Shown here: piece after piece, positions 17,552 to 20,048 of the stretch | Layout: each line of letters begins with the position of its first letter | How positions within the stretch are numbered: the first letter of the stretch is position 1 | Assembly (NCBI GenBank): GCA_017450215.1 | Contig: JAFSVH010000017.1 | Location: 3,497 to 67,496, forward strand | Direction: 5' to 3' | From: Bacilli bacterium | GTDB lineage: Bacteria; Bacillota_I; Bacilli_A; ML615J-28; CAG-698 | Length of the DNA: 64,000 bases | The notes under the pieces: model-generated | The model's database searches: none | What the model was told of the DNA's origin: nothing | Seen by the model: only the letters and a program-made list of their open reading frames with translations | Program-made: the position numbers and the translations under genes

Positions 17552-18337
17552 TTAAAATCCCATTGACTTATATAAGTCTAATAATTCTTGTTCTAATGCT
17601 TTTTTGTTGTCTGCATCCCATTTTGTCATGTTTGGAGTCTCATCAAAAGCACTCCAACCATTTGCTTGGATGTTTTTTACAATAGATCTATCTTGTAAAG
17701 GCGTTAATAATTTTGCATTTGGGGTAAATTCTTTAACTTGTTGGGTCAAAGTTTCCAAGCTTACCCTTGGAGCTCTCTTATTATAAGCCATTCCGTTAGG
17801 AATAATGTACTTTATTGAATCAATATCTAGATTGTTATCTATAAAATATTGTATTGTGTTCCAAAAACCACCTAATCCTAGAGTGTCTAAACCAACAACT
17901 ATACACACTCCATCGCTAATTTCAAGTAAAATTTCAGTTAATCTACTACTTGATGGTGGAAAATCAATCAAAATATAATCAAAAAACTCACTATATTCCG
18001 CAAACATACCTTTTAATTTCTTTTCTTGAGCTCTTTCGAAAGTCAATTTCATAGAAAGTTTGTCTGTATTTAATGTTTTTATCAAATATAAGTTTTCTCT
18101 TACCTCTATTAACAAATCACCAAGTTCAGCTTTTCCTGCAATATAAAATTCTAAATAATTATCATCACTTTCAAAGATTTTATCATCAGCACCAAAGATT
18201 TTGAATATACTATTTTGATCGTCTGCGCTTACAATTAACACTTTTTTGCCTTGTTTTGCTAAAAAATGACCTAAATAACCGATAAAAGTGGTTTTACCTA
18301 CTCCACCTTTCTTACAAAATGTAGAAACTATAGCCAT
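17552..18337 (-). CDS. parA: Small ParA/MinD-family partition ATPase (type Ib-like)
   Basis: 261 aa. Deviant Walker A CKKGGVGKTT at the N-terminus with no N-terminal HTH. Its ATG overlaps the stop codon of the upstream RHH gene (TAATG). Confidence 0.8.
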   Translation of the reverse strand: MAIVSTFCKKGGVGKTTFIGYLGHFLAKQGKKVLIVSADDQNSIFKIFGADDKIFESDDNYLEFYIAGKAELGDLLIEVRENLYLIKTLNTDKLSMKLTFERAQEKKLKGMFAEYSEFFDYILIDFPPSSSRLTEILLEISDGVCIVVGLDTLGLGGFWNTIQYFIDNNLDIDSIKYIIPNGMAYNKRAPRVSLETLTQQVKEFTPNAKLLTPLQDRSIVKNIQANGWSAFDETPNMTKWDADNKKALEQELLDLYKSMGF

Positions 18338-18699
18338 TATTTACCATCCCTGTCTAATTTTTCTAGACATGCTATCTCAATAAATGAAGAAACTTGCAAT
18401 CCTAAATCTATTGCAGCCTTTTTAATTCTAATTCTAAGTGCTCTATCCATTGTTGCTGTATATTTCTCTCTGTTTTCTTCGATCACTTCTTTTGTTTTAG
18501 GTTTTGGTGCTTCCTTTTTAGGTGTTTCAACCACTTTAACCTCTTCACGTTCTTGCTCTTTAGCTTCGGTAATCAGTTTTTTGCTCTTTGAATCATCAAA
18601 AGGGTTTTTAATTGGCTCATCACTTACAACTTTAACTTCCTCACTCACTTTAAATGGATCAGTACGCTTTTTGAATGGAGGCTGATTTGAACTGTTCAT
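18337..18699 (-). CDS. Ribbon-helix-helix protein (ParG/omega-like) with a disordered lysine/glutamate-rich N-terminal tail; putative centromere-binding protein/repressor
   Basis: C-terminal roughly 45 aa (TMDRALRIRIKKAAIDLGLQVSSFIEIACLEKL) fits an RHH/CopG fold. AAGGAGAA RBS. Translationally coupled to the downstream parA. The iteron cluster begins 20 bp upstream of the start. Confidence 0.55.
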   Translation of the reverse strand: MNSSNQPPFKKRTDPFKVSEEVKVVSDEPIKNPFDDSKSKKLITEAKEQEREEVKVVETPKKEAPKPKTKEVIEENREKYTATMDRALRIRIKKAAIDLGLQVSSFIEIACLEKLDRDGK

Positions 18700-20040
18700 T
18701 TTTAAATTCTCCTTAAATAATTATAATTTTTACATACATACATAAAACCATAAATACATTTATACATACATACATATTTACATATTTTATAACATATAAA
18801 AACGTATTAACAAGAACGATGATAGATCAGCAAACAAGCAAAAACAGAAGTGTCAAAGAGTACAAAGTCCCGAACCACTGCCAATCCGCCAAATTTTATC
18901 TTAACTTTTGACTACCTCGAGAGACCTAATTTCATCAAAATAACGCAATAACCAAAACTGAGTAATTAATTTTAAGTTTTTGTTAAAAGTTAATTTTAAA
19001 TTTAAGGCCTTGAATTTCGCTTACAATCAATTTTTATAGGTAAAATAAGTATTAATTCGTTTTAATTTTAAAAATCAAACAAAATTAAAAATTTTTAACC
19101 CTTAAAAACACAATTTTTGGCTATTTTGGTCGCTCTTGTTTTCTTTGTTTGTTCCTTTTTACTTCGTTAGATAAGCTGAAACATGTTATTTGTTTTACAT
19201 AAATACATAAAAACATATTTACATATTTATTCTTGTATGTATAACCATATAAGAATATTTATGTTTTTATGTATATACATACAAATGTATATATTTATTT
19301 ATGTTGTTATGTATATATTATACTATCATAGAAACAAACTTTCAAGATTAAATGTAAAGAAAATTAATAAACTTAACAAAAATATTCATAAATATATACA
19401 TATTTATGTATTTATGTATAAACATATACAAATATTGCCTGCTTTGCTGCGGTGAAATTTACTGTTCTAACTTAATTTTGAATTTTAGATCACTTTTTGT
19501 TTGTACTGTTTTAGAAAAATTTCCATATTTAGTGTTTGTTGTTGATTTTGTGTTTTTTTGTGTCGCTTCCTTGCTTGCTATTTTGAGTTTTTGTGTGATG
19601 ACAAACAGCTAAAAACGTATGGTTTTATGTATATATGTATATACGTATATACATTATGCTCTTTTTTTGATACTTTTATTTGAAAACAAAAAGTGAGATT
19701 CAGTGATTATTGCTTTTTACCATCAATTGCAAAGACGTCTCTCCCTATTTGTTTTTTTAACTACTCTATTTTTGGTTCTTTATGAATTAAATATAAGCTT
19801 TATAAATACATAGTTAAATATTTATATAAAAATGTATATACATATTTACATATTTACATATATTGAAATTTTAATGCTAAACTGTTAGTATGTATTTATG
19901 TAAATACTTACAAATTACATCATTATATGCCCATAGAATCATGGTTTTTTCTTTCTTATTAATAATATATAAAAAAAATAAATATTTTTATAGATTAAAA
20001 ACAAATAATGTGGTATAATGCTTTTAGATTTATAAAGAGG
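18700..20040. repeat. 1.35-kb AT-rich non-coding region with at least 5 clusters of TACATA / TATGTA-based iterons (recurring unit ACATATTTACATATTT) and long imperfect palindromes; candidate centromere/operator array or atypical origin element
   Basis: Clusters at about 18722-18810, 19190-19330, 19381-19435, 19615-19660 and 19797-19920. Forward (TACATA) and reverse (TATGTA) units are arranged as imperfect palindromes, for example around 19255. There is no credible ORF, no DnaA-box consensus, and interspersed T/G-rich islands of higher GC. Confidence 0.6.
20011..20019 (+). promoter_or_regulatory. Extended -10 promoter element (TGGTATAAT) for yaaA-recF-gyrBA
   Basis: TGGTATAAT lies 30 nt upstream of the yaaA ATG. 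No good -35 element. Confidence 0.35.
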
Positions 20041-20048
20041 CCAAAACT

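Follow-up and report, generated by a model that had tools for sequence, protein, structure and literature searches.

Does a bacterial chromosome carry a partition system of the plasmid type beside its replication genes? The question is raised by a stretch of 64,000 nucleotides from an uncultured, Acholeplasma-like Bacilli bacterium (contig JAFSVH010000017.1 of assembly GCA_017450215.1, positions 3,497 to 67,496), referred to here as the window. The window has a G+C content of 28% and carries a Firmicute-type origin region. Between dnaN and yaaA-recF-gyrBA lie two minus-strand genes, encoding a ParA-like ATPase and a small ribbon-helix-helix (RHH) protein, and a long non-coding field with arrays of short repeats. 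We read these elements as a vertically inherited, origin-proximal, type Ib-like chromosomal partition system with a very large multi-array centromere, and put the probability of this reading at roughly 60%. It draws on the clade-wide co-location of the genes and the field, the fold of the small protein, the architecture and phasing of the repeats and an empty spo0J slot elsewhere in the window.

A pair of opposite-strand genes after dnaN had been described in an earlier note made from the letters of the window alone (the original prediction), and this pair is confirmed. The locus is laid out as follows.

Plus strand: dnaA (probable start 14925) and dnaN (16375-17496)
17502-17535: terminator-like hairpin, bidirectional, where dnaN and parA converge (14-pair stem, then a T-run)
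17552-18337, minus strand: ParA/MinD-family ATPase, 261 aa (Pfam AAA_31, residues 2-167, E-value: 7e-25)
18337-18699, minus strand: putative centromere-binding RHH protein, 120 aa (homologue alignments, PDB profile, AlphaFold2, Foldseek)
18700-20048: whole non-coding array field, 1349 bp, 22% G+C, with 5-6 arrays of the 8-bp unit TAYRTAWW (Y = C or T, R = A or G, W = A or T) and spacers of 100-400 bp
Plus strand, beyond the non-coding field: yaaA/S4 (20049-20273), then recF, gyrB and gyrA

Conservation and descent of the module

More than 120 database homologues share at least 62% identity with the ParA-like protein. They all have a length of about 260 aa, lie on chromosomal contigs of up to 727 kb and come from metagenome-assembled genomes (MAGs) labelled 'Bacilli bacterium' or 'Acholeplasmataceae bacterium'; the window protein itself is identical to MBQ7275811.1. 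Three of these homologues (65-78% identity) are found in the order dnaA-dnaN-<parA-<small gene-(1.2-2.0 kb non-coding)-S4-recF-gyrB-gyrA, where < marks the opposite strand.

The RHH alignment, scanned against a single genome for each GTDB species, gave 45 loci, all in MAGs (numbered below with L) and labelled Bacilli, Acholeplasmatales, Mollicutes, Tenericutes or 'Coprobacillus sp. CAG:698'. Mapped by tblastn, all 45 species representatives have the order dnaA-dnaN-<parA-<RHH-(0.9-3.3 kb non-coding)-(yaaA)-recF-gyrB, where the contig reaches. The dnaN-recF spacer, which the original prediction had singled out for comparison, thus holds both the module and the repeat field in every relative found. 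Identity to the window proteins is 40-62% for DnaN, 67-82% for GyrB and 49-80% for ParA; the ParA values correlate with those for DnaN (r = 0.87) and for GyrB (r = 0.77). Because ParA identity tracks that of DnaN and GyrB, the RHH-ParA module is taken to be vertically inherited.

Two distant members retain the synteny. P0219 (L056) has a variant RHH strand, KFTSTM. P0220 (L062), an 'Acholeplasma sp.' MAG, has an RHH match with an E-value of 3e-6 and a different N-terminus, and its ParA is 294 aa long with a K-rich C-terminal extension. No yaaA/S4 gene is called at the L062 locus.

The RHH protein

The 120-aa protein has no match in Pfam or NCBIfam. Its gene is translationally coupled to parA: the TAA stop codon (18339-18337) overlaps the parA ATG (18337-18335) by one base, forming TAATG. 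Alignment of homologues divides the protein into an N-terminal peptide, a linker and a C-terminal domain. The peptide, PFKKRxDPF (residues 8-16; P8-F9-K10-(K)-R12-x-(D)-P15-F16), is invariant. The linker is K/E/P-rich and variable, with a length of 0 to about 80 residues. The lysine and glutamate richness seen in the original prediction is therefore real, but it was assigned to a tail, whereas it lies between the N-terminal peptide and the C-terminal RHH domain. The C-terminal 45 residues are almost invariant (REKYTATMDxxLRxRxKxAAxxxGxQVSxFIExACLEKLxREG). The RHH domain spans R77-G119, with the strand KYTATM and helices at residues 86-99 and 103-118.

The RHH fold of the C-terminal domain, already called in the original prediction, is well supported by profile and structure-model comparisons. 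Searched against the PDB, the profile of the family alignment matches the RHH regulator SvtR (2kel_A, E-value: 6.7e-5) and, with an E-value of about 1, the Arc repressor. ParG, omega and CopG had been proposed as the comparisons for this protein; the RHH fold was recovered through SvtR and Arc, but ParG and omega are not among the PDB profile matches of the family at E-values up to 10. In the AlphaFold2 model, the C-terminal part consists of a short N-terminal segment followed by two helices (pLDDT 82-89), and confidence is low for the N-terminal two thirds of the protein. The best Foldseek matches to this model in the PDB are chains of the Arc repressor (probability 0.87, TM-score 0.69 on the target, root-mean-square deviation 1.0 A over 40 columns), with E-values that are not significant, as expected given a domain of 45 residues.

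The family is small. A profile search of 1.84 billion representative proteins yields only 75 members, with a sharp fall in score past the 65th, and members that carry a name are called 'hypothetical protein'. Searches of 72,556 plasmids, 50,697 phage records and IMG/VR gave no match to the RHH protein.

The ParA-like ATPase

The original prediction described a 261-aa ParA with a deviant Walker box and no helix-turn-helix (HTH), and the AAA_31 match and motif positions agree with this. The deviant Walker A motif, KKGGVGKT, is found at residues 9-16; because it is reached so early, the protein is without an N-terminal HTH or other DNA-binding domain. Walker A, Walker A' (D39) and Walker B (D125) are all invariant in the family alignment.

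The protein is similar to phrog_164, a 'ParA-like partition protein' (E-value: 4.5e-27), and shows 29% identity to the window's own Soj. Its best plasmid and phage ParA matches have 26-36% identity. Matches to solved ParA-like structures are weak (E-values of 1e-10 to 1e-6) and include a small mycobacterial ParA, McdA, MinD, Soj and delta; the delta match (2oze, E-value: 1.4e-6) is not better than those of MinD, McdA or Soj. Two NCBIfam models score below their cut-offs, ParA_partition at 50.6 bits (cut-off 180) and PrgP at 30.8 bits (cut-off 400). Among the PADLOC defence-system models, ParA has only a P-loop-level match (PDC-M28B, E-value: 3e-5 over 35 residues), which gives it no membership in any system, and the RHH protein has no match.

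The repeat field of the window

The original prediction described a non-coding region of about 1350 bp with at least five TACATA/TATGTA clusters, as found here. The field (18700-20048) contains no credible open reading frame (ORF); two ORFs called within it (19183-19455 and 19406-19612) read through repeats and are taken as spurious. It holds 25 TACATA/TATGTA hexamers (18731-19902), compared with 49 in the other 62.6 kb, an approximately 24-fold higher density. The window total of 74 is close to the shuffle expectation of 71.5, and one third of these hexamers fall within 2% of the sequence. In total, some 38 copies of the 8-bp unit TAYRTAWW are present in the field, in either orientation and in the arrays listed below, and Tandem Repeats Finder also reports 8-bp periods. 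Runs were scanned as in-phase 8-bp units whose first six bases equal TAYRTA with at most one mismatch, three or more units in length; the whole window has 16 such runs, 13 of them in the field.

18731-18786: array A, 7 units, 32-87 bp upstream of the RHH start codon
18813 to 18784, minus strand: promoter-like TTGTTA-18-TAAAAT, with array A downstream of the site
18980-19122: spacer block, the sole one conserved, with the closest relatives only (L053, L055)
19196-19227 (4 units, one orientation) and 19260-19315 (7 units, mostly opposite orientation): array B
19345 to 19317, minus strand: promoter-like TTGAAA-17-TATAAT, near-consensus (11/12 matches), directed at the RHH gene across array B and spacer 1
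19389-19428: array C, 5 units, mixed orientation
19618-19657: array D, with the exact core 14-mer TATGGTTTTATGTA at 19618-19631 (plus strand) and a 4-unit run at 19626-19657
19799-19862 (8 units) and 19889-19912 (3 units): array E, bracketing a promoter-like site
19863-19891, plus strand: promoter-like TTGAAA-17-TAGTAT with TG, facing yaaA-recF-gyrBA

The unit is thus 8 bp and not the 16 bp first proposed, although a conserved double unit of 14-16 bp, TATGGTTTTATGTA(TA), does exist. With at most one mismatch, its 14-mer core has four matches in the window, all of them in the field: 18739-18752 on the minus strand (within array A), 19204 on the minus strand and 19260 on the plus strand (variants carried by array B) and 19618 on the plus strand. 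The first exact unit is found 32 bp from the ATG of the RHH gene, where the original prediction had put the first cluster 20 bp upstream. From its position, array A is likely to be an operator of the RHH-parA operon. Transcription from the promoter-like site at 19345-19317 could yield a long leader or a non-coding RNA.

Long imperfect palindromes had also been predicted, and one is present at array B. Because its two parts have opposite orientations, array B forms an imperfect palindrome at 19199-19318, with 59-nt arms (19199-19257 and 19260-19318) that are 76% complementary. Folded as single-strand DNA, this palindrome has a z-score of -4.5. Cruciform formation here is a matter of speculation.

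The spacers evolve fast and show little conservation. In nhmmer searches with each spacer, the sole conserved block is about 120 bp long and is found in the three closest contigs; it includes a 15-mer, AGCGAAATTCAAGGC (19007-19021, minus strand), that is invariant and exact in the closest relatives only. A k-mer recurrence screen over 35 species recovered repeat variants only. Rfam has nothing on the field at the gathering threshold, and at E-values up to 1 only a spurious mir-297 match on the repeats. Metagenome contigs of three close relatives stop within the field, at about 0.8-1.0 kb upstream of the RHH gene (L053:1-1023, L054:1-793 and L055:1-997), which suggests that the repeats break short-read assemblies; the field would account for the recurrent assembly break near dnaN in MAGs of this clade.

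Conservation of the repeats

The repeats were surveyed in 37 regions (36 relatives and the window). The non-coding field is 0.9-3.3 kb long, with 16-33% G+C in most species, and contains 4-25 TACATA sites per kb compared with 0.0-1.8 per kb in the rest of the locus. Site spacings are nearly all multiples of 8 bp; between neighbours among the 848 pooled sites, the distances are most often 8 bp (273), followed by 16 bp (58), 32 bp (37) and 24 bp (36), regardless of relative orientation, and the flanks of the pooled sites echo the T-A-Y-R-T-A pattern. In-phase runs of at least four units occur in 33 of the 37 regions (median 4 runs, as opposed to 0.01 in shuffles). The 14-mer TATGGTTTTATGTA, again with at most one mismatch, has 63 matches in the fields of 31 of 38 species and a single match elsewhere, corresponding to 0.94 per kb in the field and 0.002 per kb outside it (an enrichment of about 470-fold); most matches have a single orientation relative to the RHH gene. 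The distant L062 is among the species with such matches; there (5443-7000) the conserved 16-bp element, TATGGTTTTATGTATA, is found as isolated sites 40-270 bp apart, together with a long array beside the RHH gene.

The repeats also keep their position relative to the operon. TACATA sites lie within 140 bp of the aligned RHH start in roughly three of every four relatives listed. Ten of 35 species have TACATA units in the short parA-dnaN spacer as well (14 per kb pooled; for example L001:8796-8926, L009, L042 and L049) and thus carry arrays on both sides of the RHH-parA operon; the window's own 55-bp spacer has none. Upstream of dnaA the repeat is at background (0.67 versus 0.58 per kb). Because the parA-dnaN spacers are enriched and the region upstream of dnaA is not, the repeats belong with the RHH-parA operon rather than with dnaA. 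Two TTTTACATAT motifs, 20 bp apart, are present at 14857-14886, shortly before dnaA; since the pooled data show no repeat enrichment upstream of dnaA, this pair is probably due to chance.

The RHH protein probably binds these repeats. The strand KYTATM is present in the RHH proteins of all 45 loci and the TAYRTA motif is likewise frozen, which is consistent with one reading the other. In L056, where the strand is KFTSTM, units of the TAYRTA type are still present at a lower density.

Soj, ParB and parS

The window encodes a second ParA-type protein.

47838-48614, plus strand: canonical soj, after mnmG-rsmG (AAA_31, E-value: 1e-58)

The gene order at this locus (45159-49568) is mnmG-rsmG-soj-MscS-like-DUF951-like, with the last gene encoding 60 aa (49386-49568). 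Soj is followed by the MscS-like gene, and no spo0J/parB follows it in the window, in accordance with the original prediction of a canonical soj 28 kb away with no such neighbour. The same is true of three relatives in which soj is on the same contig or assembly as the RHH-parA locus (L059-L061). Their order is mnmG-rsmG-soj-(MscS)-DUF951, without spo0J after soj, and in L060 soj directly abuts the DUF951 gene. In Bacillus, the order is soj-spo0J, then yyaC and the DUF951 gene yyzM. Given this order, soj followed by DUF951 without spo0J looks like a clean loss of spo0J. A search for parS (TGTTTCACGTGAAACA, up to three mismatches) found no site in the 64-kb window. The RHH-ParA module probably stands in for ParB-parS.

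Proposed model

The mode of action that we propose for the module is as follows. RHH dimers would read the pseudo-palindromic hexamer TAYRTA through their paired beta-strands (KYTATM), bind next to one another at 8-bp intervals, whatever the orientation, and so coat arrays of 4-8 units. The promoter region of the RHH-parA operon coincides in part with array A, where the RHH protein probably represses its own operon. The invariant basic N-terminal peptide, PFKKRxDPF, carried on a flexible linker, would stimulate ATP hydrolysis by the dedicated ParA. In its ATP-bound dimeric form, ParA would bind the nucleoid non-specifically, and repeated binding and release would move sister origin regions apart by a diffusion-ratchet. 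The system would thereby do the job of ParB-parS, which appears to have been lost, and the orphan Soj may keep a DnaA-regulating role.

Of the three explanations offered in the original prediction, an RHH-based segregation or origin-positioning system replacing ParB-parS fits best. Its conservation and the empty spo0J slot support that claim; the segregation function itself we infer. A wider version can be put forward only tentatively: that an entire order-level clade of uncultured Acholeplasma-like Bacilli replaced the near-universal ParB-CTPase and parS by an RHH-coated, kilobase-scale, multi-array 'regional' centromere beside oriC, served by a dedicated ParA, with the orphan Soj kept for a different task, for instance DnaA control.

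If the module does what we propose, another system can take the place of ParB on a bacterial chromosome; it would then be the first known case of a type Ib-like (RHH) system segregating the chromosome of a bacterium, and the bacterial equivalent of archaeal SegAB. Its three parts, a protein of some 100 aa, an ATPase of 260 aa and a defined 8-bp code, would make a compact system that can be reconstituted, in which array size, orientation and spacing could be related to centromere strength. A likely function would also be given to a family that is annotated solely as 'hypothetical protein'.

Relationship to known partition systems

To our knowledge, the partition systems described for bacterial chromosomes rely on ParB, which acts on parS as an HTH CTPase clamp. 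In a review of chromosomal ParB systems in bacteria, RHH centromere binders are listed for plasmids only (PMC7022226). Full-text literature searches found no description of a bacterial chromosomal RHH-ParA/array arrangement, and the comparable chromosomal systems in the literature are archaeal, namely SegAB (PMC8682754, PMC12139799) and a Haloferax system (bioRxiv 10.1101/2025.11.19.689047).

The closest parallels in design are the plasmid type Ib systems, TP228 ParF-ParG-parH and pSM19035 delta-omega-parS. Like the window module, these combine a small Walker-type ParA lacking an HTH with a small RHH binder whose flexible N-terminal tail has a basic motif (a role in ATPase activation is presumed for the window protein) and with many short degenerate repeats, direct and inverted, that follow one another directly in a fixed register (8 bp for ParG, 7 bp for omega). 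The operator and centromere of TP228 have 8 plus 12 degenerate 4-bp boxes, direct and inverted, separated by 4-bp AT-rich spacers; one ParG dimer binds each box with a period of 8 bp, and the N-terminal tail of ParG has an arginine-finger-like motif (PMC3130281). Omega binds 7-bp heptads of mixed orientation as a left-handed protein spiral and requires at least four contiguous repeats for activation of the ParA ATPase (PMC9499535). The window units are 8 bp long, of mixed orientation and in runs of 4-8. In type Ib the promoter-side array doubles as the operator; array A is so placed and would be bound in the same way.

The differences from type Ib are as clear. Type Ib systems are plasmid-borne, whereas the window module is chromosomal, origin-proximal and vertically inherited throughout a clade. 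The window has about 38 units (more in some relatives) in 5-6 arrays, in fields of 0.9-3.3 kb across the clade, compared with 7-20 units in 50-160 bp. No sequence similarity to ParG or omega is detected (PDB profile, E-values up to 10), and ParA has no more than 36% identity to any plasmid or phage ParA. What appears to be new is a type Ib-like partition system that would be chromosomal and clade-wide, with a centromere of regional scale. The enterococcal plasmid systems pAD1 RepB-RepC and pCF10 PrgP-PrgO pair a ParA-like ATPase with a small DNA-binding protein and have 8-bp iteron arrays flanking the operon. They are plasmid-borne and their iterons have another sequence; the repeats of the window type flank the operon on both sides in the ten species mentioned above.

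Archaeal SegAB of the Sulfolobales resembles the window module in being chromosomal and in having a ParA-type ATPase, a small RHH-fold binder, binding sites that adjoin the operon and a proposed role in chromosome segregation without a ParB-CTPase (PMC8682754, PMC12139799). It differs in being archaeal, in its segA-segB gene order and in having a small number of palindromic sites in place of kilobase-long arrays of 8-bp units, and neither SegA nor SegB was recovered in the PDB searches with the RHH profile and ParA. Soj-Spo0J-parS shares with the window module an origin-proximal centromere, a ParA-type ATPase and a presumed role in separating sister origins. It relies on an HTH CTPase clamp that spreads from 16-bp palindromic parS sites, in contrast to the RHH partner and the arrays of 8-bp units found here.

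Several points weigh against a chromosomal partition system. The RHH gene precedes parA, unlike classic type Ib, in which parA is first. The field exceeds plasmid type Ib centromeres about tenfold in length and has spacers that the model does not explain. Arrays are weak in 4 of the 37 species under the strict run criterion, and no informative covariation of the RHH strand with the motif is found over the 45 loci. The absence of ParB applies to the canonical locus and the 64-kb window rather than to whole genomes, and with Soj present as a second ParA-type protein a segregation role for the RHH-linked ParA is not forced. The evidence comes from uncultured MAGs throughout.

Replication origin

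The rival that survives best holds that the field is part of the replication origin, as an unwinding element or auxiliary origin, and that the RHH protein and ParA serve chiefly in initiation control or origin architecture, much as Soj acts on DnaA, and not in segregation. The high AT content of the field fits, and the dnaA-dnaN spacer (62-111 bp in the clade) is short for a Firmicute-type unwinding region. The DnaA boxes point the other way.

14826-14851: inverted DnaA-box pair TTTTTCACA (14826 plus, 14843 minus), upstream of dnaA
16318-16326, plus strand: third DnaA box TTATTCACA, in the 67-bp dnaA-dnaN spacer

These are three of eight TTWTNCACA boxes in the window, and no such box is present in 18700-20048. 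The canonical box TTATCCACA, allowing 1-2 mismatches, forms no cluster in the field and has no overall enrichment in the window. Pooled over 35 species, TTWTNCACA boxes reach 3.4 per kb upstream of dnaA and 9.2 per kb in the dnaA-dnaN spacer, where nearly every relative has exactly one, compared with 0.5 per kb in the field and 0.15 per kb elsewhere; a few species, such as L004 and L026, do have 4-5 of them in the field. From these positions, the DnaA boxes of oriC lie on either side of dnaA, at a distance of about 2.4 kb from the field. As mechanically called, the dnaA ORF opens at 14793; the likelier start is the ATG at 14925, which is preceded by the ribosome-binding site AAAGGAG.

Strand composition is equivocal. 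The cumulative GC skew is lowest at 19-20 kb and the skew changes sign between 14.7 and 20 kb, so the field sits in the turning zone. GC skew had been suggested in the original prediction as a means of placing the origin relative to the array; it locates the sign change to this zone but does not place the origin relative to the array within it. Per-gene coding-strand skew, including skew at third codon positions (GC3 skew), makes dnaA and dnaN lagging-strand-like and parA and the RHH gene leading-strand-like in the window, with the switch inside the field, as expected if replication started there. Pooled over the 45 loci, however, GC3 skew is negative for parA as it is for dnaA and dnaN. The repeat of the field is moreover unlike a DnaA box, and it accompanies the par operon on both sides in ten species. 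An origin function in place of segregation is therefore considered unlikely. As part of a partition system, the array field may also contain the origin unwinding site, which would fuse centromere and origin.

Other explanations

The RHH protein might instead be mainly a transcription factor of the omega/Arc kind, acting on its own operon and on the divergent yaaA-recF-gyrBA operon, with ParA as an accessory and no movement of DNA. Array A lies in the RHH promoter region, array E brackets the promoter-like site that faces yaaA, and both omega and ParG are repressors as well as centromere binders (PMC9499535, PMC3130281). To regulate two promoters, however, 35-60 units over 1-3 kb are not required, nor are internal arrays distant from any gene start. 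The strict coupling to a conserved ParA with intact catalytic motifs and the conservation of an N-terminal peptide apart from the DNA-binding domain both point to a partner of an ATPase. Regulation as the principal role is thus improbable; as an added role it is compatible with partition.

Capture of a plasmid partition cassette was another possibility raised in the original prediction; as a recent event, with a plasmid or phage cassette that is now selfish or a decaying remnant, it finds no support. The architecture is plasmid-like, and ParA matches phrog_164 and, weakly, the NCBIfam ParA_partition and PrgP models. A newcomer would be hard to reconcile with identical synteny in 45 species representatives and two deeper branches, with ParA identity that tracks DnaN and GyrB, with best plasmid and phage ParA identities of only 26-36% or with an RHH protein that has no counterpart in the plasmid, phage and IMG/VR collections. 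This explanation is very improbable. An ancient capture at the base of the clade is possible and does not conflict with a chromosomal partition system.

That the repeats are AT-rich low-complexity DNA without specific function, as the abundance of TA-rich words in a genome of 28% G+C might suggest, is refuted by the concentration of a third of the hexamers in 2% of a window whose total matches expectation, the strict 8-bp register over 37 regions, the enrichment of TATGGTTTTATGTA and the near absence of runs in shuffles.

Other features of the window

The region on the other side of dnaA is as follows.

Minus strand: jag, yidC, rnpA and rpmH, then a 368-aa gene of unknown function (13600-14706)

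The product of the 368-aa gene, which lies between rpmH and dnaA, has an N-terminal membrane anchor and no match in Pfam, PADLOC or NCBIfam-type models. In relatives the same slot is filled by a gene of 297-404 aa (tblastn identity 22-40%, at least 25 loci). Adjoining jag, at 9722-11368, are a gene with a Fic domain and a gene for a C92 (YaeF/YiiX-like) peptidase, and this pair is found in an identical position in several relatives (L001-L007). Rfam matches at gathering score are present at 4384-4589, 26077-26255 and 57881-57999, representing two T-box leaders and one flavin mononucleotide (FMN) riboswitch. The T-box at 26077 precedes a seryl-tRNA synthetase-like gene, which is itself downstream of gyrA.

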